Origin: a virus
Taxonomy: Duplodnaviria; Caudoviricetes
Direction: 5' to 3' (one strand)
Length of the DNA: 64,000 nt
Virus record (IMG/VR): IMGVR_UViG_3300036985_003045
Shown: positions 2,768-44,661 of the stretch, one piece after another
Layout of the letters: each line of letters starts with the position of its first letter
Position numbering within the stretch: the first letter of the stretch is position 1
Program-made: the position numbers and the translations under genes
Notes under the pieces: model-generated
The model's input: the letters and a program-made list of their open reading frames with translations, nothing else
Told to the model about the DNA's origin: nothing
Database searches by the model: none

Positions 2768-2775
2768 TATAAATA
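2768..2775 (+). promoter_or_regulatory. T4-type late promoter TATAAATA
   Basis: exact TATAAATA, followed by an AGGAGG RBS and the ATG at 2794. Confidence 0.85.
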
Positions 2776-2793: not shown

Positions 2794-3090
2794 ATGGATA
2801 TTGGAATACCTAATTTTGATTTTTTTGGTTTGGTACAGCAATGTGGATTTCCCATAGCTTTGGCTGTTGTATGTGGTTGGTTTATTATGCAAGCCATAGA
2901 ACTGGTGTTAGGTTCAGTTGTTAAATCTATTAAAAAACTGACAGGATTACTTCGGTCTATGGATGGTAGAGTTAGTCAAATGAACGTTGATATACTTGAT
3001 TTGGATGACCTGGTATCCCAATCATTAATAGTAGAATCTTTACCTAAAAAGATACATCATCAGGTGCATCAAGAAATGAACAAGTCATGA
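2794..3090 (+). CDS. small membrane protein, YvrJ-like (paralog 1)
   Basis: QQCGFPIALAVVCGWF TM segment followed by a heptad region. Confidence 0.7.
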   Translation: MDIGIPNFDFFGLVQQCGFPIALAVVCGWFIMQAIELVLGSVVKSIKKLTGLLRSMDGRVSQMNVDILDLDDLVSQSLIVESLPKKIHHQVHQEMNKS

Positions 3091-3371
3091 ATCCGGAATA
3101 TGTAAAGTTTTTTTCGGATGTATTAACTCCAATATTAGCATCTTGTGTTTTGGGTAGTTTTATATTCACAGCACTTAAGTTTGTTTTGGGTGATGTTATA
3201 ACTTCGGTTAGAACACTGGCATCAATTGTAATGGCTCTGGAGAATAGAGTTAAAACTTGTTCTCACGAACTTATTAAGATTGATGTTACTATATCATCTG
3301 TACTAGGACTTAGACCAGATTTGGATAGAATATCCAGAATGGATGGTAAGAATGATGCTAGGAGAGATTAA
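3087..3371 (+). CDS. small membrane protein (paralog 2)
   Basis: N-terminal TM plus LENRVKTCSHELIKID heptad like its neighbours; ATGA overlap. Confidence 0.7.
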   Translation: MNPEYVKFFSDVLTPILASCVLGSFIFTALKFVLGDVITSVRTLASIVMALENRVKTCSHELIKIDVTISSVLGLRPDLDRISRMDGKNDARRD

Positions 3372-3634
3372 TGGATGTTACAGAAATAGGTAATCTCATA
3401 CAACAATATGGATTTCCAATTGTTGCGGCTGGATACATGTTAAAGATGGTAAAATATGTTTGGTCATTTACTATTGAACAGATTAATCCAGTATTAGGTG
3501 AAGCTTCAAAAGAATTGATTACTTTAATTGATAGAATACGATTATTGGATAATGATTTATTGAGACTTACTGCGAAATTGAATACCGTATTGCAGATGCG
3601 TGAAAATGCTCAGAAACAAAAGAATGAAAAATGA
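3371..3634 (+). CDS. small membrane protein, YvrJ-like (paralog 3)
   Basis: QQYGFPIVAAGYML and LIDRIRLLDNDLLRL segments. Confidence 0.7.
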   Translation: MDVTEIGNLIQQYGFPIVAAGYMLKMVKYVWSFTIEQINPVLGEASKELITLIDRIRLLDNDLLRLTAKLNTVLQMRENAQKQKNEK

Positions 3635-4062
3635 AAACTATAATCTTATTACTGTTTATGTTCAGCAATGTCCAAGCAGAACAAAGTTTTTCGTTTAAAT
3701 CTCCAGCATTTAGTGGTATAGGATATTCTTCACATGTTCAAACAATAGAAAATACTGAAACTACTAGAAAACAAGCATTAGAGGCACAGAAATTACAAGA
3801 TGCCAAGGATGCTTCAGCATTAGCTAAGAACACTAATCTTAATAAGTTTCTGAATAACTTTGAAAGTCGTGTTTATGCTCAATTATCAACTCAATTGATT
3901 AACAACTTATTTGGTGAAAATCCAAAGAATAGTGGAACAGTTCAGATTGAAGGTAATACTATAACGTATACCAAGACAGCTGACCAAATATCAATGACTA
4001 TTACTGGTGCAGATGGTAATGTAACACAAGTAATAATACCTGTCGGTAGTTTTACATTCTAA
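3631..4062 (+). CDS. csgF: curli assembly protein CsgF-like
   Basis: signal peptide; FSFKSPAFSG N-terminus; FLNNFESRVYAQLSTQL and ITITGADG..TQV segments typical of CsgF; directly before csgG. Confidence 0.85.
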   Translation: MKTIILLLFMFSNVQAEQSFSFKSPAFSGIGYSSHVQTIENTETTRKQALEAQKLQDAKDASALAKNTNLNKFLNNFESRVYAQLSTQLINNLFGENPKNSGTVQIEGNTITYTKTADQISMTITGADGNVTQVIIPVGSFTF

Positions 4063-4850
4063 TGCGTATTATAGTATTATGCCTATTATTAACAGGATGT
4101 TCTGGTGGTATATTAACTCCCTTTAATGTATTCACTAATGAACCAGAAGTATTAGCAATAAATGAGAAACGAGAAACAATTCTACCTGCCCCTAAAGATG
4201 GTAAAGTAGTTGTTGCGGTATATTCATTTTTGGATAAGACAGGTCAAAGAAAAGATTCTGCTACTATTGCAAAATTATCATCTGCTGTAACACAAGGGGG
4301 TGAATCTATATTATTAAAATCATTGGAGGATGCTGGTGATGGTATGTGGTTTAGGGTTGTTGAACGAGTTGGTTTAGATAATTTATTAAAAGAACGACAA
4401 TTGATTCGTTCAGCGAGAGATGAAGCAAAGGATGATAAACAAATAGGTTCGATTCTTTATGCTGGTATGATACTTGAAGGTGCAATAGTATCATATGATA
4501 CCAATATCAGAACTGGTGGTATTGGATTAAGATATATGGGAATAGGACCCGATACACAATATCAGGAAGATATGGTAACTGTATCATTGAGAGCTATTAG
4601 TACACAAACTGGTGAGGTATTACTCACTATTAATGTACAGAAAACAATATTGAGTTATACAGTAGGTGTTGCTGTATTTAAGTTTTTTGATATGGGAACA
4701 CAATCATTCGAAAATGAAGTTGGTGCTACTAAGACTGAGGCAGGAATATATGCATTGAAATCGGCATTAGATTTAGCAGTTGAAGAATTAATTATTAAAG
4801 GTGAAAGAAAAAGATTATGGAAATTTTCAAAAACTTTTAGGAATAATTAA
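4062..4850 (+). CDS. csgG: curli secretion channel CsgG-like lipoprotein
   Basis: lipobox LLLTGC; VAVYSFLDKTGQRK, SSAVTQG, WFRVVERVGLDNLLKERQLIR, LEGAIVSYDTN, VTVSLRAISTQTGEVL. Confidence 0.95.
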   Translation: MRIIVLCLLLTGCSGGILTPFNVFTNEPEVLAINEKRETILPAPKDGKVVVAVYSFLDKTGQRKDSATIAKLSSAVTQGGESILLKSLEDAGDGMWFRVVERVGLDNLLKERQLIRSARDEAKDDKQIGSILYAGMILEGAIVSYDTNIRTGGIGLRYMGIGPDTQYQEDMVTVSLRAISTQTGEVLLTINVQKTILSYTVGVAVFKFFDMGTQSFENEVGATKTEAGIYALKSALDLAVEELIIKGERKRLWKFSKTFRNN

Positions 4851-5561
4851 ATGAACATCATAAGAAATCTATTACTGTTTGTTATGCTTACAGTAATAAA
4901 TCAATCATCAATAGGAGATAGTGGTGGAAATTCTGTATACATTGACCAGACTAATGCAGATAACTCTACTGTAAATATTACACAAACAGGTGCAAATAAT
5001 ACTGTAGGGGACCCAGATTCTATTGGTTCACCATCTTTTCAAATAGAAGGCAACTCTATGTTGTTTACTATTATTCAAGATGGTATGAACAATGCTATAA
5101 CAGGTAATCTTATTGGTGGTGGAGCAACTGCTGATATTACTCAAACTGGTAATAGCAACTCTACTGATTTAAATATGGGCAATATGGGTACTGGTTCAGG
5201 TACTTTAAGTTTGGATTTAACAGGTAGTAATAATACAACTAATCTTAATATTGGATTATTGCATGATTCTGGAAACTATTCATATCTTTCAACTATTACT
5301 GGTAGTAATAACATTTTAACTAGCACTATTAATAGTAAATACACTGAGAATACTTTTATAGTAACGGGGTCTGGTAATGCAATCACAACTACTCAATCTG
5401 GTGCTAATGGCACTAATCTTATTGCTGGTAATAATATCGCCATATCCAATATTGGAAGCAATAATACCATAGGGATTAGCCAAGATGGAACAACGAATCC
5501 AAATTCGGCTATTGTCAATCTTACTGGTGATAATGCTATTGTTAATATCGAGCAACATTAA
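4851..5561 (+). CDS. curlin-repeat protein (CsgA/CsgB-like)
   Basis: signal peptide, then N/G/T/S-rich repeats with a Q.G..N / TG.NN pattern (ITQTGANN, IIQDGMNN, ITQTGNSN, LTGSNN, ITGSNN, TQSGAN). Confidence 0.8.
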   Translation: MNIIRNLLLFVMLTVINQSSIGDSGGNSVYIDQTNADNSTVNITQTGANNTVGDPDSIGSPSFQIEGNSMLFTIIQDGMNNAITGNLIGGGATADITQTGNSNSTDLNMGNMGTGSGTLSLDLTGSNNTTNLNIGLLHDSGNYSYLSTITGSNNILTSTINSKYTENTFIVTGSGNAITTTQSGANGTNLIAGNNIAISNIGSNNTIGISQDGTTNPNSAIVNLTGDNAIVNIEQH

Positions 5562-6543
5562 GGCTGGTATAGGTTCAATAACAGAACATAAAGGTAATGC
5601 TTCTATTACAAGAGAGAAATCAGTATTAGAAGCAAAGAAGGATTCAAGTATTGATTCTATGGATACCATTGAAACTGGTAAAGGTGAAGTGGGTATATCT
5701 TTTGAGGATGATACTCAAGTAAAGGTAACAGAAAATAGTAAATTGGTTATAGATGATTTTGTCTATGACCCCAATAATAAAAGTGTTGGTAAATTGGCAT
5801 TGAAATGTGCTATAGGTACTGTAAGATATGCTTCAGGTAATATAGCACATGCTAATGCCAAGAATGTTGCTATCAATACACCTACAGCAACCATAGCAGT
5901 ACGGGGTACAGCATTTACCATGACTGTAGATGAAATTGGTCAGTCAATGATTATATTACTTCCAAATTTAGATGGGAGTGTTGGTGAGATTGAAGTTAGA
6001 ACTGCTATAGGTTCTGTTGTATTGAATCAAGCATTTCAAGCAACAGTAACGACTTCAAATGAAATTAAACCAACGAAACCAGTGGTGTTATTGATTAATG
6101 AATCAGCTATTACTAATATGATGATAGTAAAACCACCAAAAGAGATTACACAAAAACTAATTGAGGATAACAAATCAGGTTCAGCATTAGATTTTAATGG
6201 ATTAGATAAAGATGCATTATCAGTAAGAGTTTTTATAGACCCATTTGCAAAATTTAATGAATTAAGTGTTGATGCATTATTGATAGATTATTTAATAAAT
6301 GCTTTAGAAGATGCATTTTCAGTAGGTACATTTGCTGCTGGATATAATTCACAGAATCAAGTTTATATATTTGATAAGCAAACAAATTGGCAAGTCCAAC
6401 GAACAGTGAAACAAAGTGCTACATTATTACTTAACAAAGACCGTGGTTACAATATAACATTAGTACAAGATGGGACAACAGTGAAATTACAAAGTGCAGA
6501 TACAACCACTAATAATATTTCAATAAAACAAGGAGCAAACTAA
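5485..6543 (+). CDS. secreted FecR-domain protein (likely start ATG 5533)
   Basis: D.I.TG.G.V.I.FEDDTQVKVTENSKLVID and TPTATIAVRGTAF FecR-type motifs; signal peptide from M17. Confidence 0.85.
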   Translation: MEQRIQIRLLSILLVIMLLLISSNIKAGIGSITEHKGNASITREKSVLEAKKDSSIDSMDTIETGKGEVGISFEDDTQVKVTENSKLVIDDFVYDPNNKSVGKLALKCAIGTVRYASGNIAHANAKNVAINTPTATIAVRGTAFTMTVDEIGQSMIILLPNLDGSVGEIEVRTAIGSVVLNQAFQATVTTSNEIKPTKPVVLLINESAITNMMIVKPPKEITQKLIEDNKSGSALDFNGLDKDALSVRVFIDPFAKFNELSVDALLIDYLINALEDAFSVGTFAAGYNSQNQVYIFDKQTNWQVQRTVKQSATLLLNKDRGYNITLVQDGTTVKLQSADTTTNNISIKQGAN

Positions 6544-6821
6544 TGGCAATAGCTAAGAAAGAAGAAAAGAAAGAAGATTTTATGACATCAAAATGGCGAC
6601 CAATGATGGCAATATCATATATGGCTATTTGTTTGTTTGACTTTATGGCAGGTCCAATTCTATACAATGTTCTCCAGTATATGAATCCTGGACAACATCT
6701 AGAAATGTGGCAAGCAGTTACATTACAAGGTGGTGGGTTATATCATCTATCAATGGGTGCTATTATTGGTATTACTGCTTTTGGTAGAACTAAAGAGAAA
6801 TTAGCAGAAACTACTGAATAA
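6543..6821 (+). CDS. holin, 3TM GTA-type
   Basis: WRPMMAISYMAICLFDF...TLQGGGLYHLSMGAIIGITAFGRTKEK pattern of the 3TM holin family. Confidence 0.75.
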   Translation: MAIAKKEEKKEDFMTSKWRPMMAISYMAICLFDFMAGPILYNVLQYMNPGQHLEMWQAVTLQGGGLYHLSMGAIIGITAFGRTKEKLAETTE

Positions 6822-6828
6822 ATAGTTA

Positions 6829-6915
6829 TGTGGTACAGCTATCTAAGAATAAATCCTATTGTGATAATTTCAATATAGGAAAGTATGCATCGGGTCTTAG
6901 ATAGTTTGTACCGCA
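6829..6915. other. long stem-loop between convergent units (possible bidirectional terminator or ncRNA)
   Basis: gtggtaca-gctatctaaga pairs with tcttagatagt-ttgtaccgc; inner tcctattg/caatatagga hairpin. Confidence 0.55.
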
Positions 6916-7110
6916 TTTTTACCTATTGAGAATATAACAAGTAACTTCAAATCCTAATCTGATATCTTTATAAGTCGGTGTTTTCCACTTCATCTTGTTC
7001 TCCTAATTTATACATAAAGTCTAAGAATTCCTCAAATGTCAGACCTCCTGGCATTGAATAGAATGTACATTCAACAGATTCTTTCATTCTTTCTAAATCA
7101 AAATTCATAA

Positions 7111-9159
7111 TTACTTACTGGTGGCTACAAAAGTTCCCTTCCATTTCTTTGGAAAAGATTCATCAGACATATATCCTGTTATTCTTTTAGTCATCATATC
7201 ATAATAATAATCTAATTCACCATCAAATGAACCTTTCAATTCCATGCAATGTGTAATGGCATATGCCCATTCTTGTTTCTTATAATGCTTAAACATCTTA
7301 TTATGTAATGTTCTAGTATTGGCATATTCTAAACGATTGTATCTATCTGGTTGTAATACTGTATAAATGTCTAATCCAACAGTTTTACCTTTTACAGCAA
7401 TGTTGTCTAGCTTAATAACAAAGTATTCATCTTTAACAAGTTCAGCAGTTTCTGGACCAATGATTAATAATACCCCATAAGATTTGGTTTGGCCTTCCAA
7501 TCTTGCAGCTGTAGAAACTGAATCACCTAATACATCATATCCAAATCTAGTTTTTGAACCTATGTTACCTATAAGTGTTTGTCCAGTATTAACACCAGCA
7601 CCCATACCGACAATTGGTTTACCTTGTGCTATTAGAGTTTCATTAAATCCATTAACAGATTCAATCATTTCTAATGCGGTTTTAACAGCAACCTTGGCAT
7701 GGTTTACATCATCTAGTGGTGCATTATGTACATGAAGACTAGCATCACCAATGAACTTAATGATACATCCATCATTCTTCAATACTGGTTCTGATATGGC
7801 AGTCATATAATCATTCATAATATTGGTAAGACCTTCTACATCATCACCATAAGATTCACCAAGAGTGGTAAATCCCCTTAAATCTGTCATAACAATAGAA
7901 AGTTCTTTGCGTTCACCACCAAGTTTAATCAATTCTGGATTCTTCTGAAGCTTTTCTACCATGATAGGAGAAACATAGGAACCGAATTGTTTTTTAATTT
8001 GAAGTTTTTGTCCTAATTCAGATAGAAACTTTACGGTGTATGTGTGCCCATAGACCGCAACAATTGCGAATATAGGTATTGTAATGTCGAAAAGATAATA
8101 AAGAGTGGTATATAGATAATTAGAAATAGGATAAAGAGAGATAATGATGCTGCAAAATATAAGAATTCCATATTTCCACCTAGATAGTATTATTGATATT
8201 AATGAAAGAAAAAGTATTGTTAATAATTCTGCACCTGTAGTCCAATCAGGTCTTGATATATTTATACCTTTGGTAATAGTATCTAGAATTGATGCTTGAA
8301 TGTAATGAGGAAAGACTGCTCCATTAGAAGTCGCAACGGGGTTATTAAGTCCTTTTGCTGTGAGTCCGACAATAACGATTGCTCCGTTGAAGTCATTTGG
8401 TAAATTGACGGATGAAAATTGTCTAAATCCTGCGGGTTTAATCCAAAGTCTACCGAGGTCATCTGTTTGGATTTTACCGAACTTTGGTATTCTAACTGCT
8501 TGGATTGACCCTTCGTTGATTTTGACTTGGAATGATGGGTCTCCTGATGCCACACGCAAGGTTTCGAGACTGATACTCGGATACAATAATCCTTTGGAAC
8601 TGACCACCATTGGGATTCTTCGGGTAACGCCATCAATTTCTGGGAGTGTATTAACAACACCAATACCAGCAGCATTATCATTGAAAACTTGTATGTTGGG
8701 AAGTATGTTTTCATATTTAACTCCTACATCACCAGTACCTATAACTGATACACCTGGTCTAAATGGTTTATAAGTTTCAGTAAAAGCTTCATTAGTACCA
8801 GTTTGAGGTAATACTACTGGATATTCTTGAAGTACTTGTGTTAATGTATCATCTTTATCAAATCTATCTGCTTCAGGCATAAACAGATTAAAAACAACAA
8901 GACCAGCACCACGGATATACAGCTCCTTAATAAGATTAGCATATTCGTTCCGAGGGAATGGGAATTGACCTTTTTCTTTAAGTGTTGCATCATCTATATT
9001 TACCAATTGTATATCTGATTGTTGAATATCTTGGGTTAAAAGAGTATCAAAATATCTTAAACGAATAGATTCTACAAATGATGGGTCAACTACTCTTAAC
9101 CCAATGATTAAACCTAATGTTACTAACGATAACCATGGGGACAAGAATAGTTTTTTCAT
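7111..9159 (-). CDS. CHASE2-domain class III adenylate/guanylate cyclase
   Basis: N-terminal TM; CHASE2 (NIDDATL..GQFPFPR, DGVTRRIPM); three TMs; cyclase motifs VMTDLRGFT, IKFIGD, GVNTG, GYDVLGDSVSTAARLEG. Confidence 0.95.
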   Translation of the reverse strand: MKKLFLSPWLSLVTLGLIIGLRVVDPSFVESIRLRYFDTLLTQDIQQSDIQLVNIDDATLKEKGQFPFPRNEYANLIKELYIRGAGLVVFNLFMPEADRFDKDDTLTQVLQEYPVVLPQTGTNEAFTETYKPFRPGVSVIGTGDVGVKYENILPNIQVFNDNAAGIGVVNTLPEIDGVTRRIPMVVSSKGLLYPSISLETLRVASGDPSFQVKINEGSIQAVRIPKFGKIQTDDLGRLWIKPAGFRQFSSVNLPNDFNGAIVIVGLTAKGLNNPVATSNGAVFPHYIQASILDTITKGINISRPDWTTGAELLTILFLSLISIILSRWKYGILIFCSIIISLYPISNYLYTTLYYLFDITIPIFAIVAVYGHTYTVKFLSELGQKLQIKKQFGSYVSPIMVEKLQKNPELIKLGGERKELSIVMTDLRGFTTLGESYGDDVEGLTNIMNDYMTAISEPVLKNDGCIIKFIGDASLHVHNAPLDDVNHAKVAVKTALEMIESVNGFNETLIAQGKPIVGMGAGVNTGQTLIGNIGSKTRFGYDVLGDSVSTAARLEGQTKSYGVLLIIGPETAELVKDEYFVIKLDNIAVKGKTVGLDIYTVLQPDRYNRLEYANTRTLHNKMFKHYKKQEWAYAITHCMELKGSFDGELDYYYDMMTKRITGYMSDESFPKKWKGTFVATSK

Positions 9160-9167
9160 ATTATATC

Positions 9168-9944
9168 CTAGAATAAATCTGTAAAGAATTTAGAAACAGA
9201 ATCTAGAAAATCATCATCTTTCTCTACTGCTTCTGTATCAGGTATGGCAACTTCTTCTAATACAATAGGAGCAATAATTGCAGCAGCTACAGCAGGTGCT
9301 ACGACAGCAACCGGAACTGGTTTAGAAAATACATCTTCATCAATAGCACTTAATGCGATATCATAATGATGTTGTCTGTCTTTCAAACCAATAGTACCAC
9401 CATTAATTCTTTTAGTTAATGTAGTAAATTCACTAGAATCACAGAATTGATTTAGTTTATTAGTTTGCCAGAAGAATGCACCTGAACAAATAGCACCCTC
9501 TAATGTTTCACAATATGCAACAGTTTCATCTAATGATTTACCAATAGACTTTGCAAACTTTGAATAGTTATCTTTACCAGTTAATTGAATACAACCACGA
9601 CCACGGAATTTGAAACCATCTCCAGATGCTTCTGTTCCATTACCCATTCTATCAGCATAAACCTTGTTTGCAATCTTTTCTGGATTACGATTATAAGGAG
9701 CAGCCATTGCAACAGAGATAAATCTTTTTGGCCAAACTTTACAAAGACCATCAGCAGAATAATTAAGATTCTCTTTTAATGCTGTAAACTGAGCAGATTC
9801 ATGCCCACATTGAGCCAAGAAAGCAGCAACTCTTTTCTTGGTATTAATTTCATATTCAGGTAGAACTTTATTAAGAACCTCAAGTAATGCTTCGGGTTGT
9901 TTATTGTTCGGGCAAATCTTTTTCAGTTGTTCAAGTTTTAACAT
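9168..9944 (-). CDS. glycoside hydrolase family 19 endolysin
   Basis: AAFLAQCGHES, ENLNYS, YADRMGNG, FRGRGCIQLTGKDNY, TKRINGGTIGLKDR. Confidence 0.92.
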   Translation of the reverse strand: MLKLEQLKKICPNNKQPEALLEVLNKVLPEYEINTKKRVAAFLAQCGHESAQFTALKENLNYSADGLCKVWPKRFISVAMAAPYNRNPEKIANKVYADRMGNGTEASGDGFKFRGRGCIQLTGKDNYSKFAKSIGKSLDETVAYCETLEGAICSGAFFWQTNKLNQFCDSSEFTTLTKRINGGTIGLKDRQHHYDIALSAIDEDVFSKPVPVAVVAPAVAAAIIAPIVLEEVAIPDTEAVEKDDDFLDSVSKFFTDLF

Positions 9945-10523
9945 TTATTTCTCCATTGTTTTCGGGTAAAATACAATAACGCCATCGTGCTTATTTATTA
10001 ATTCATAATCATGTGTATCAGATAATATATTTACAAACTTATCCCAATCAACATCAATCAAATGTTTTTCAGGGAGTTCGCCTTTAGTATATGTAGGATT
10101 TTTTGGTGAACGAAATGTTCTCATATCATCACACACAACGACATCTTTTGAATAATCTGGTTTTAATTTCTTAATTAATTCAATTTCAGGGATTAATGGT
10201 ATTCTAAATTCTTCTGCAAATTCATCTTCACCATAGATATCTGGAAAATGTGCATCTAACCAAAATAAAGTTTTATTGGTTTGATTTGGTAATAGATTAG
10301 TTAGATATGATAGGCTTTCAGAATGTTCTATATTTGCATATGGAAACTTTTGTTGACTCATTGTAACATATTCTAAACCAATATCACAAGAATATACTTC
10401 ATCATATCCAGAATCAAATGCATGACCTATACCAGCACCTTGCCAGCATCCAGTTTCTATAAAGTCTACTAAATTATATTTTTCTCGATATTTCTTTATA
10501 TCTATATGTGTAAGCCAAGTCAT
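9945..10523 (-). CDS. putative SAM-dependent methyltransferase-like protein
   Basis: FIETGCWQG, YSCDI and FWLDAH segments resemble a class I methyltransferase fold. Confidence 0.5.
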   Translation of the reverse strand: MTWLTHIDIKKYREKYNLVDFIETGCWQGAGIGHAFDSGYDEVYSCDIGLEYVTMSQQKFPYANIEHSESLSYLTNLLPNQTNKTLFWLDAHFPDIYGEDEFAEEFRIPLIPEIELIKKLKPDYSKDVVVCDDMRTFRSPKNPTYTKGELPEKHLIDVDWDKFVNILSDTHDYELINKHDGVIVFYPKTMEK

Positions 10524-10855
10524 TTTCTTTCTCCAATTTTATAGGTAGATTTCAACTAATACCGCAATAGCTATCCAAAAAGAAAGGATTGCCAAAACTG
10601 GAATAATTGTAAATATTAAGGTTTCCATTGCTTTTTTCATAAATTATAGAACCTTTAGAAATATAGTATTTAAAACAATAACAAGACTTAACAACAATCC
10701 TAAAGTTGTTATATCAATTATAATACCTATCGTTGATTCATTATAAAAATGTTTCATTGCATATCCTCAATAACTCTAAATATAATAATAAAAAGGGCGA
10801 CTGAAGCCACCCAAACTGCTACTCGTAAAATAAATAAATTTAATTGTTTCATACG

Positions 10856-11074
10856 TTAATCTATATAAGTTATTGTTGGAACATATTCAAACTGTCTTTT
10901 ATGGTTGGATACTGCTTGTTTTGCTTCTTTCATACTATCGTACCAAACAATCCAGTCTGTATCTGAAATATCTTTCCATCTTGTTACATATCCACTCATA
11001 TCTATATATTCTGCTCTAAATTTTTCACCAGTCACAGACATAGCACTAATTACTCTATAATTTATCATATTCAT
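10856..11074 (-). CDS. hypothetical protein (paralog of 28602..28817)
   Basis: near-identical protein at 28602..28817. Confidence 0.75.
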   Translation of the reverse strand: MNMINYRVISAMSVTGEKFRAEYIDMSGYVTRWKDISDTDWIVWYDSMKEAKQAVSNHKRQFEYVPTITYID

Positions 11075-11083
11075 TGTTTCATA

Positions 11084-11281
11084 TTACCACTTATGGATTG
11101 TTGCTACTATTACTACAAGACATGTTATTATATGTAGGAGAATCCAACCAGTTCTAATAACTAATGAAAGTCTTGCTTCTTTTTGAGTTAATATTGGTAT
11201 AGTTGGTTCATCGTGGTCCGATTCACCCATAAGATGGTCAAAACTTCTACTCCAAACTCTTGTCCATCTAATTCTTTTCAT
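11084..11281 (-). CDS. hypothetical membrane protein
   Basis: MKRIRWTRVWSRS... start inside track ORF 11084..11353; C-terminal TM. Confidence 0.5.
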   Translation of the reverse strand: MKRIRWTRVWSRSFDHLMGESDHDEPTIPILTQKEARLSLVIRTGWILLHIITCLVVIVATIHKW

Positions 11282-11450
11282 TTGTAACCCATTATAGTTT
11301 TGTAAATAAAATTGTATAATGGATAGAACCAAAATCCTGCCACCATAAACCACATATTAGATACACCATTTTGTTCCAAGGTAATACCCAAAAGACACCA
11401 TAAGGTTATACCAACAAGACAAGTTATCAACATCAATATTGTAAATCTCA

Positions 11451-12071
11451 TTATGAAACCCCTTCACTGAAATCACTCGCCATTTGTTTAGCATCTTCTA
11501 ATGTTTCTGCTGTCCATTCACCTCTACCATATTGTTCTGGATAAGGGGTAAAATTATTATGTGTGTAATCTCTGTCAGCACCTTTGAATTTAGTTTCAGA
11601 GACCAACATAAATCCAAGTTGACCATCTTGCATATAATTATCATCCAATGATACTAATGATGTTGTGCAAGTGACATCAGGTGATTCACATTCACGCCAA
11701 ATACCATCATCAATATTCCAAAACTTCAAAGATTCTTGAATATAATCTTCCTTACAAGTCGGGGAATATGCACAATCATCTCTACTTACTTTAGAACCAA
11801 CACCAAATCCATAAATTGCTCTATGACTCCAGCCATACCACTGCTTTACTGATGGGCTGAATCCAATTCCGTGTTGTAACTGCTCAGTGATTCCTCTCTT
11901 GACTAGGTGGGTAATAGTATCTTCCATACCAACTCTGGTAATATAACTATCATCGAATTTTGAGTAGTAAATTAAATCAGCATCTTCTGGTATTGTAGAT
12001 GGTCCTGTATAGGCAACCAAATCTAAGTATTCTTCATTTGTCATAATATAATTTCCTCTAATTAACTCCAA
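11451..12071 (-). CDS. hypothetical phage protein
   Basis: 206-codon ORF containing QWYGWSHRAIYGFG; absent from the duplicated block at 28.5-29.6 kb. Confidence 0.7.
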   Translation of the reverse strand: MELIRGNYIMTNEEYLDLVAYTGPSTIPEDADLIYYSKFDDSYITRVGMEDTITHLVKRGITEQLQHGIGFSPSVKQWYGWSHRAIYGFGVGSKVSRDDCAYSPTCKEDYIQESLKFWNIDDGIWRECESPDVTCTTSLVSLDDNYMQDGQLGFMLVSETKFKGADRDYTHNNFTPYPEQYGRGEWTAETLEDAKQMASDFSEGVS

Positions 12072-43927: not shown

Positions 43928-44004
43928 TGGTCTCCTATGAAGGATTTGAACCTCCGACCCTTCCGCCCCAAACGGAATGCGCTACCAGACTGCGCTAATA
44001 GGAG
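43928..44004 (-). tRNA. trnP: tRNA-Pro(TGG)
   Basis: cloverleaf, anticodon loop TTTGGGG, encoded CCA. Confidence 0.95.
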
Positions 44005-44010
44005 AAAAAT

Positions 44011-44085
44011 TGGCGGTTCTAATGGGAATTGAACCCATCTCTACGCTGTGACAGAGCGTTATACTAACCAATATACTATAGAACC
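44011..44085 (-). tRNA. trnD: tRNA-Asp(GTC)
   Basis: cloverleaf, loop CTGTCAC, encoded CCA. Confidence 0.93.
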
Positions 44086-44091
44086 TAAAAT

Positions 44092-44166
44092 TGGTGTCCC
44101 TAATGAGATTCGAACTCATGTTATTGGATTGAAAGTCCAATATCCTAACCGCTAGACGATAGGGAC
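44092..44166 (-). tRNA. trnE: tRNA-Glu(TTC)
   Basis: cloverleaf, loop CTTTCAA, encoded CCA. Confidence 0.95.
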
Positions 44167-44173
44167 ATAATTT

Positions 44174-44248
44174 TGGAGCTCCCTACCGGAATCGAACCGA
44201 TTTATGATGATTACAAGTCAACTGCATCGCCACTTATGCTTAGGGAGC
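44174..44248 (-). tRNA. trnT: tRNA-Thr(TGT)
   Basis: cloverleaf, loop CTTGTAA, encoded CCA. Confidence 0.92.
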
Positions 44249-44507
44249 AAACTATTTAAATGTACTTATACGTAATTAGGAACTATCTCCATAGGTAACC
44301 TAATCAATTACAAATACATTTAAGAAAACACACTAGCCTTACGATACCCCATTTCTGGCTCCAGCAGTTAGACTCGACTCAGTAGGTCTATCTAATGTGT
44401 TTTATTAAAATTAGAGGCGTAATTCAGGGACTCTTACCCCACCATTGTTCCAGTAAAACCGCCCTACTGGTAGTGCCTTACTTTTCGGGTAATTAATCCG
44501 ATTAATT

Positions 44508-44581
44508 TGGAGCGGGATATCAGAATCGAACTGATGACAGAAGTTTGGAAAACTCCAGTTTTACCATTAAACTAATCCCGC
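44508..44581 (-). tRNA. trnG: tRNA-Gly(TCC)
   Basis: cloverleaf, loop TTTCCAA, U discriminator, encoded CCA. Confidence 0.95.
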
Positions 44582-44586
44582 AAAAT

Positions 44587-44661
44587 TGGCTCCTTGAGAT
44601 GGGCTCGAACCACCGACCGGACGATTAACAGTCGTCTGCTCTACCACTGAGCTATCAAGGA
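44587..44661 (-). tRNA. trnN: tRNA-Asn(GTT)
   Basis: cloverleaf, loop CTGTTAA, G discriminator, encoded CCA. Confidence 0.95.

Follow-up and report, generated by a model that had tools for sequence, protein, structure and literature searches.

Curli genes carried by phages are abundant in the surface ocean. They are found in phages that infect SAR11 and OM43, bacteria without curli of their own, and their purpose has been a standing question since 2013-2020. The question arises again, with a signalling enzyme attached, in a stretch of viral DNA of 64,000 nucleotides (nt) (IMG/VR record IMGVR_UViG_3300036985_003045; hereafter the window, meaning the whole stretch analysed), where an operon for a curli channel, a curlin-repeat protein and an exported FecR-domain protein converges on the gene for a receptor cyclase with a CHASE2 sensor domain. 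The phage is T4-like, AT-rich (about 31-35% GC) and marine; among isolates it comes closest to two Kyanoviridae, Pelagibacter phage HTVC008M and Methylophilales phage Melnitz. A first-pass annotation of the window had proposed that channel, FecR protein and cyclase form a trans-envelope signalling circuit, which would sense a surface or periplasmic cue, possibly curlin or superinfecting virions, and make cAMP to alter host CRP control or lysis timing. We find that the genes for CsgF, CsgG, curlin, FecR and the CHASE2 cyclase are one conserved unit across diverged marine phages. The window holds this phage's version of the viral curli (type VIII secretion) module, and we lean, if only somewhat, towards the view that FecR and the cyclase are its two accessory signalling genes and work as the proposed circuit.

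One conserved unit across diverged marine phages

Open reading frame (ORF) calls and Pfam domains agree with the layout described at first reading, a curli operon facing a convergent receptor cyclase on the minus strand. The plus-strand operon (2794-6821) comprises eight tightly coupled genes, with overlaps of 1-4 nt plus one of 77 nt, that encode in order three small paralogs, CsgF, CsgG, a curlin-repeat protein, a FecR-domain protein and a holin-like protein with three transmembrane segments (3TM). The cyclase gene, facing this operon, lies 290 nt past its end and belongs to a convergent minus-strand operon of a 192-amino-acid (aa) ORF, a GH19 endolysin, the 682-aa cyclase (7111-9159), a 45-aa ORF and a 24-aa pqqA-like ORF.

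To ask how constant this association is, we used loci from IMG/VR, for which a search with only the FecR protein gave 80 and one with the cyclase gave 18. Among the FecR-recovered loci having at least 3 kb upstream, 70 of 70 carry both csgF and csgG, and of the 31 FecR loci that extend 4 kb or more upstream and 6 kb or more downstream, 30 have the cyclase, on the same strand in 26 and inverted in four. The predicted co-occurrence of csgG, FecR and CHASE2 cyclase in phages is thus borne out. The cyclase lies at the head of the module in four loci (L081, L084, L097 and L099) and is inverted in the clade of the window (L022, L023 and L025-L027), whose convergent layout is that of the window; in both cases it is still attached. 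In the GenBank annotations of HTVC008M and Melnitz the order is csgF-csgG-curlin-FecR-x-cyclase, all on one strand.

The first-pass annotation knew of no phage system of this kind, which at the genomic level was wrong, since Wittmers et al. 2022 (PMC9599517) had published the cluster from genomes and metatranscriptomes. In pelagiphage podo- and myoviruses, whose hosts are without curli genes, they described one or two 'HK' genes and then CsgF, CsgG, CsgA/B and FecR, after which a second CsgA/B and an adenylate cyclase often come. Phage curli genes made up ~0.1% of assembled viral proteins; abundances of the module's genes co-varied over 65 ocean stations, expression was seen in metatranscriptomes, and an alphaproteobacterial origin was reported. 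Curli genes are only discussed by Zaragoza-Solas et al. 2020 (PMC7029224), as they are in Buchholz et al. 2022, where a role in lysis timing was argued from synteny, with the pore as a pinholin- or secretin-like outer-membrane gate.

Compared with this pelagiphage type VIII secretion system (T8SS) region (PMC9599517, PMC7029224, HTVC008M, and Melnitz in PMC9004378), the window has the same genes in the same order from the small paralogs through FecR, and its cyclase is 37-41% identical to those of HTVC008M and Melnitz over 82-99% of the length. It differs in that the cyclase is inverted and placed in a separate operon with a GH19 endolysin, that a holin-like gene stands after FecR where the published region has a second curlin, and that the catalytic domain is of an Asp542/Ser549 type (window cyclase numbering) common to Melnitz but not to HTVC008M. 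The CHASE2 domain, the Asn-to-Ser change at position 549 and domain swapping are unnamed in the published accounts of the pelagiphage T8SS region. The window is, then, a rearranged, lysis-linked member of the published module with a derived catalytic cassette.

The curli genes themselves are readily assigned. Coordinates 3631-4062 (+) encode CsgF, the curli pore accessory protein (143 aa; PF10614, E 3.6e-15), 4062-4850 (+) encode CsgG, the outer-membrane curli channel lipoprotein (262 aa, with an LTGC lipobox; PF03783, E 2.4e-53), and 4851-5561 (+) encode the candidate fibre subunit, a curlin-repeat protein that has a signal peptide (236 aa; PF07012, E 3.4e-6). The window resembles the CsgBAC-CsgDEFG system of E. 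coli in its CsgG lipoprotein channel, its CsgF and its curlin-repeat subunit, which bears a signal peptide; unlike that system it is without CsgE, CsgC and CsgD and has in addition three membrane paralogs, the FecR protein, the holin-like gene and the cyclase. Pfam searches of the operon's eight ORFs gave no match to CsgE.

Two catalytic types and a mosaic cyclase

The cyclase has the TM-CHASE2-3TM-class III architecture assigned to it at first reading, on which Pfam (CHASE2, PF05226, E 3.9e-38, residues 14-323; Guanylate_cyc, E 2.1e-16) and hydropathy agree. A transmembrane (TM) segment at residues 6-24 is followed by CHASE2, a cluster of three TM segments at 307-369 (by hydropathy), a linker with the motif IKKQFG (388-393), the catalytic domain (about 410-600) and a C-terminal tail. 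The family is large, comprising 6835 proteins at E <= 1e-10 among 8000 candidates scored.

The Lys in KFIGD and the Asp in YDVLGD that had been read as marks of ATP specificity are both present, as Lys468 and Asp542; Lys plus Asp is the textbook ATP-specifying pair in class III cyclases. Lys468, Arg553 and the metal-binding Asp426 and Asp472 are invariant in 53 phage and 77 bacterial cyclase sequences. The first-pass annotation did not mention position 549, which in the window is Ser (GDSVSTAAR) and not the transition-state Asn, and the window has 'GDASLH' instead of 'GDxxMAF'. All 77 bacterial relatives have Ser/Thr at position 542 and Asn at 549 (class IIIb-like), and on the sequences compared the ancestral state at position 542 is Ser/Thr. 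The Asp542/Ser549 type (Asp/Ser type) occurs in 18 of 53 distinct phage cyclases, Melnitz included and HTVC008M not, and in none of the 77 bacterial ones. Relative to subclass IIIb adenylate cyclases (Lys-Thr/Ser), the window cyclase agrees in fold and at five of the six canonical catalytic positions, but Asp542 is IIIa-like, Ser replaces the transition-state Asn, and 'GDASLHV' replaces 'GDxxMAF'.

The Asp/Ser catalytic domain does not follow the sensor to which it is joined. In a search with the catalytic domain of 1.84 billion representatives of 50%-identity clusters, only 10 of the 150 best have the type, and each of these ranks among the first 16. In a full-length tree, built by quick search, it falls in at least four or five places; of two partition trees made with FastTree, that of the catalytic part (410-600) unites it in one clade with support 99, and that of the sensor part (1-400) splits it at least six times. 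Pairwise identities point the same way: the window and Melnitz are 34% identical in the sensor half and 58% in the catalytic half, Melnitz and HTVC008M 53% and 36.5%, and two loci, L067 and L079, 96% and 53%. For the last pair (L067:5777-7744 and L079:10764-12827) the DNA is 80-100% identical to nt ~1200 and 45-60% identical thereafter, the breakpoint lying just 3' of the conserved IKKQFG linker, which looks like a recent swap of a catalytic domain of Asp/Ser type for one of Thr/Asn type or the reverse. Because one catalytic clade sits on unrelated sensor halves, and because pairwise identities and a sharp DNA breakpoint add to the trees, we conclude that the catalytic half is swapped between phage lineages as a cassette at the linker after the last TM helix. 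No mention of such exchange was found in published accounts of the phage module. The two most divergent Asp/Ser cyclases that were looked up, both on short metagenome contigs, also adjoin FecR genes.

The FecR-domain protein and its bacterial pairing

The second accessory gene (5485-6543, +) encodes an exported protein of 352 aa with a Pfam FecR domain (PF04773, E 2e-8). Its start had been placed at 5533, but 5485 is the more likely position, because a full signal peptide is present in the longer form alone and because homologues align from residues 1-7; nor is it the last gene of its operon, as had been thought, since the 92-aa holin-like gene (6543-6821) comes after it through a TAATG overlap. 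The protein is made up of a signal peptide (2-24), a beta domain of FecR/PupR type (26-210), a linker (211-280) and a C-terminal beta domain (281-349). The AlphaFold2 (AF2) model has a mean predicted local distance difference test score (pLDDT) of 75.5, with low confidence in the linker. The FecR head matches the C-terminal cell-surface signalling domain of PupR (6ovk_R; Z 15.2, root-mean-square deviation 2.5, 134 residues) and BDI_1681 (4m0n; Z 14.1).

PupR uses this domain to bind an outer-membrane transducer at the latter's periplasmic signalling domain, and the FecR head of the window has the same fold. Unlike the regulators of the FecA-FecR-FecI and PupB-PupR systems, however, the window protein has a cleavable signal peptide only, which runs straight into the FecR domain; an anti-sigma domain and a TM anchor are absent from both sequence and model, and Pfam finds neither an extracytoplasmic function (ECF) sigma factor nor a TonB-dependent receptor or transducer in the operon. 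Because it is without the anti-sigma and TM parts, the protein is, as modelled, one that shares the fold of FecR regulators and not a functional member of their family. Its outer-membrane partner, if it has any, would be CsgG.

The C-terminal domain had been called a curlin-like tail, a claim that is weakly supported. Folded alone it reaches a pLDDT of 89.8, and its [IV]x[IL]xQ strands are conserved, with Gln349 invariant and Gln328 kept in about 90%; in a search of 5201 ORFs with a hidden Markov model (HMM) of the domain, the best non-FecR matches are curlins (E 0.07-0.7). As a curlin repeat proper the tail was rejected: none of 47 FecR homologues matches Pfam Curlin_rpt, hhalign gives a probability of 6% (P 0.006) against curlin, and comparison of the model with solved structures (Foldseek, VIA-align) returned no match, the best Z being 3.8. 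We therefore speak of a curlin-like strand motif and regard it as a weak lead. The surface-anchor domain of an RTX adhesin (5ix9), tried as a match to the C-terminal domain, aligns instead to residues 26-121, the N-terminal half of the FecR head (Z 7.1), and is on the models a fold resemblance only.

The first-pass annotation had stated that bacterial CHASE2 cyclases often lie near FecR genes. A profile of the phage cyclases recovered 80 bacterial loci (numbered L101-L180), mainly from Alphaproteobacteria, whose cyclases are 26-36% identical to the phage ones and have the same overall architecture down to the C-terminal tail. An HMM of the phage FecR proteins identifies a FecR gene in the flanks of 30 of these 80 loci, within 300 bp in 20, and all 10 of the neighbours tested exceed the Pfam FecR cut-off, so the statement holds. 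Clustering of flanking ORFs across the 80 loci shows which other families recur: HlyD proteins with a cyclic nucleoside monophosphate (cNMP)-binding domain (32), ATP-binding cassette (ABC) exporters (30), FecR (31), TolC-like outer-membrane efflux proteins (OEP, 10), class II cAMP phosphodiesterases (PDE, 7) and tetratricopeptide repeat (TPR) proteins (6). Since HlyD, ABC exporter and OEP recur, the bacterial version couples cyclase and FecR to an envelope-spanning secretion machine with a cAMP receptor of its own, and the set suggests cAMP-gated secretion. A literature search found no account of cNMP-gated type I secretion beside CHASE2 cyclases. The HlyD-family protein with an N-terminal cNMP-binding domain often occurs together with a FecR gene, for example in L109, L116, L119, L120 and L124.

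Bacterial modules therefore resemble the window in that an exported FecR-domain protein adjoins a TM-CHASE2-TM sensor (20 of 80 loci), and differ from it in being without csgG and csgF and in having catalytic domains that all carry Ser/Thr plus Asn. Because FecR and cyclase genes are adjacent in bacteria without curli genes nearby, the pair predates its union with curli. Related associations, with CHASE2 sensors of differing output, have been described in Campylobacterota, where a CHASE2 cyclase, PDE, FecR and TPR genes form a cluster (PMC9239204), in Burkholderia, where a CHASE2 histidine kinase and a LysM/FecR protein share the 'BiofilmReg' operon (PMC5192318), and in Sinorhizobium meliloti, which has the CHASE2 cyclases CyaD1, CyaD2 and CyaK and the FecR-domain gene smc02177 (PMC5498481).

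The order to which G002, the genome of L124 (single-amplified genome (SAG) AG-337-E20), belongs has 42 small genomes (0.8-2.0 Mb), and 33 of them encode a CHASE2 protein, in most cases just one, about 790 aa long. Genes for cNMP-binding proteins flank the cyclase in G002 and in a SAR86 SAG, G003.

Expression, lysis genes and the proposed circuit

A T4-type late promoter motif, TATAAATA, lies at 2768-2775 (+), 19 nt 5' of the first gene of the plus-strand operon, and is followed by an AAGGAGG ribosome-binding site. Motifs of the TATAAATA type are not enriched across the window (10 found, 17 expected), so that the case for a late promoter is one of position only. Between the converging operons a long branched hairpin of ~90 nt with a U-run (6828-6921, +; minimum free energy -36.4 kcal/mol, z -6.3), as stable as which none of 200 shuffles was, is probably the terminator of the plus-strand operon. 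Neither the hairpin nor the rest of the region treated here has a match in Rfam, a scan of which over the window returned six tRNAs only, encoded in a cluster at 43931-44661 (-).

The operon opens with three tandem small paralogs (2794-3634, +; 98, 94 and 87 aa), each with a coiled-coil-like tail and, at the N-terminus, a hydrophobic segment that exceeds the hydropathy cut-off only in the first two. Translational coupling joins them to one another and to csgF. They have homologues 5' of csgF in most related loci and correspond to the 'HK' genes of Wittmers et al. At 87-98 aa they are too short for a kinase, and Pfam finds no kinase domain in them, only weak YvrJ matches (E 0.009 and 0.07).

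The far end of the endolysin-cyclase strand is formed by two short ORFs. One of 45 aa (6973-7110, -) abuts the stop codon of the cyclase and overlaps the last, a 24-aa ORF (6919-6993, -; MKWKTPTYKDIRLGFEVTCYILNR), which appears to resemble PqqA, the peptide precursor of pyrroloquinoline quinone (PQQ), with its E-x3-Y motif; no pqqB-E genes were seen near it. Elsewhere in the window a ThyA-type thymidylate synthase is encoded at 132-1118 (-; PF00303, E 5.4e-91). Melnitz has thyX a few kb 5' of its curli module, on the same strand.

Both operons include a putative lysis gene. The holin-like protein (6543-6821, +; 92 aa), coupled to FecR as described above, matches GTA_holin_3TM (PF11351, E 2.5e-6, 28.4 bits against a cut-off of 24.8), and a simple hydropathy scan puts one segment only over threshold. 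On the opposite strand, 2.3 kb away, a GH19-type endolysin (9168-9944, -; 258 aa; PF00182, E 1.8e-6) that matches phage endolysins and chitinases is encoded 8 nt upstream of the cyclase. An Ala/Val/Pro-rich hydrophobic segment near its C-terminus (residues 210-228, hydropathy 2.45) may, from its composition, be a membrane anchor. Across lineages the holin-like gene occurs after FecR (the window clade), after a second curlin (L081, L084) and between two of the small paralogs (L091, L100), and the GH19 endolysin abuts the cyclase in L022, L023 and L025-L027 and lies 5' of the first paralog in L007-L013. This repeated capture of lysis genes fits the lysis-timing idea of Buchholz et al., though it is no proof of it.

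These features are consistent with the following sequence of events. Late in infection the plus-strand operon would place a channel of CsgG and CsgF in the outer membrane of the host and export curlin. The FecR protein would pass to the periplasm, where its head would stay while linker and C-terminal curlin-like domain engaged pore or fibre. The CHASE2 domain would sense, either by itself or via the FecR head, what state this envelope machine is in, and the cytoplasmic cyclase domain would make a cyclic nucleotide, most likely cAMP, for a receptor of the host, since the phage encodes no classical one. In the lineage of the window the circuit would be co-transcribed with holin and endolysin and, because of this, the end of infection is probably what its output is linked to.

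A number of observations weigh against such a circuit. Among the phage loci L033, the lone exception, has an autotransporter beta-domain protein in the cyclase slot after FecR (9565-11550; 661 aa, E 1.3e-9; a non-specific endonuclease and a NifU-like gene come next), and podophage modules have been reported with FecR and without the cyclase (PMC9599517); FecR is thus more constant in the modules than the cyclase, and for this reason may belong to the curli part. Neither csgG nor csgF was found at any of the 80 bacterial CHASE2-cyclase loci. In S. meliloti smc02177, a cAMP-Clr target and the only FecR-domain gene of a CHASE2-cyclase regulon mutated in a bacterium, is dispensable for signal perception (PMC5498481), so that a FecR-domain gene of such a regulon can be an effector instead of a co-sensor. 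The cNMP-binding domain PF00027 is absent from the complete genomes of HTVC008M and Melnitz and from the nearest virus record (19% complete), and an HMM of the N-termini of the bacterial cNMP-binding HlyD proteins has no match in the ORFs of the window; the cyclic-nucleotide receptor must accordingly be host-encoded or non-classical. Co-folding of CHASE2 (24-306) with mature FecR (28-352), from custom alignments, scored 0.00, which counts as evidence in neither direction. Lastly, Ser549 stands in the place of the transition-state Asn. An Asn-to-Ser change is reported (Yan et al. 1997) to cut the kcat of mammalian adenylyl cyclase 30-100-fold.

How far these points favour other explanations depends on what each must account for. 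Were FecR a structural part of the curli machine that sends no signal to the cyclase, as a stand-in for the CsgE not found among the operon's eight ORFs or as a pore-tethered nucleator, and were the cyclase an independent, host-manipulating co-traveller, one would understand why FecR always accompanies csgF, csgG and curlin when the cyclase can be missing or replaced (PMC9599517; L033), why smc02177 is dispensable for perception, and why curlins are the best non-self HMM matches of a C-terminus with conserved IxIxQ strands. Bacteria without nearby curli genes nevertheless keep FecR and CHASE2 adjacent, so the pair is older, and the adjacency is kept after the cyclase has moved or been inverted and in the two further divergent contigs; we regard a purely structural FecR as doubtful, though a real contender. 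The enzyme itself might instead be at fault, a cyclase with Asp542, Ser549 and 'GDASLH' being no normal adenylate cyclase and forming another product, working much more slowly or being a pseudo-enzyme. The absence of the Asp/Ser type from the 77 bacterial relatives, its confinement to a few top-ranking representatives and one catalytic clade, and its presence on at least four sensor backbones, which suggests selection as a functionally distinct alternative, all speak for an altered output. Invariance of both metal Asp residues, Lys468 and Arg553, with Lys plus Asp the ATP-specifying pair, speaks against it, and the domain is kept at full length and conserved (54-77% identity within the Asp/Ser type), as favours an active enzyme, which leaves this explanation unlikely in our judgement.

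Less probable still is that the module is mainly a lysis device, with the CsgG/CsgF pore as a pinholin- or secretin-like gate, cyclase and FecR as its timing and the fibres irrelevant. A holin-like gene ends the curli operon here and takes two other positions within the module elsewhere, two arrangements have the endolysin as a neighbour, and the synteny argument of Buchholz et al. points in the same direction; but most module-bearing loci have no holin or endolysin HMM match nearby, the conserved curlin subunit with its signal peptide would be needless for a mere pore, and the holin assignment is one Pfam match just over its cut-off. A joint reading to which we give similarly little credence would make the whole a trans-envelope device in which FecR, at or through CsgG, reports fibre or pore status to CHASE2, the catalytic types are under diversifying selection, and lysis is timed by the result. 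Here, going by the model, the head may be periplasmic, the ~70-residue linker may lie in the pore and the curlin-like domain outside; the two catalytic types swapped at the IKKQFG linker could produce distinct signals or be unequally sensitive to counter-measures of the host; lysis timing would apply in the lineages joined by holin and endolysin; and the bacterial FecR-CHASE2 clusters beside a type I system with a cNMP-binding HlyD would be the parallel. Against these alternatives we retain the circuit, in which the FecR protein and the cyclase are accessory signalling genes of the curli module, as the reading we favour.

The basic published picture of the module is unchanged by the window, and three testable points are sharpened. 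Cultivable systems, HTVC008M on HTCC1062 and Melnitz on H5P1, are at hand for cAMP, fibre formation and lysis timing. FecR and cyclase are an older bacterial pair that sits habitually on an envelope secretion machine, type I in bacteria and type VIII in phages. In several lineages the module has taken in lysis genes. Two phage catalytic types are traded as cassettes, which makes the output of the circuit a target of selection.

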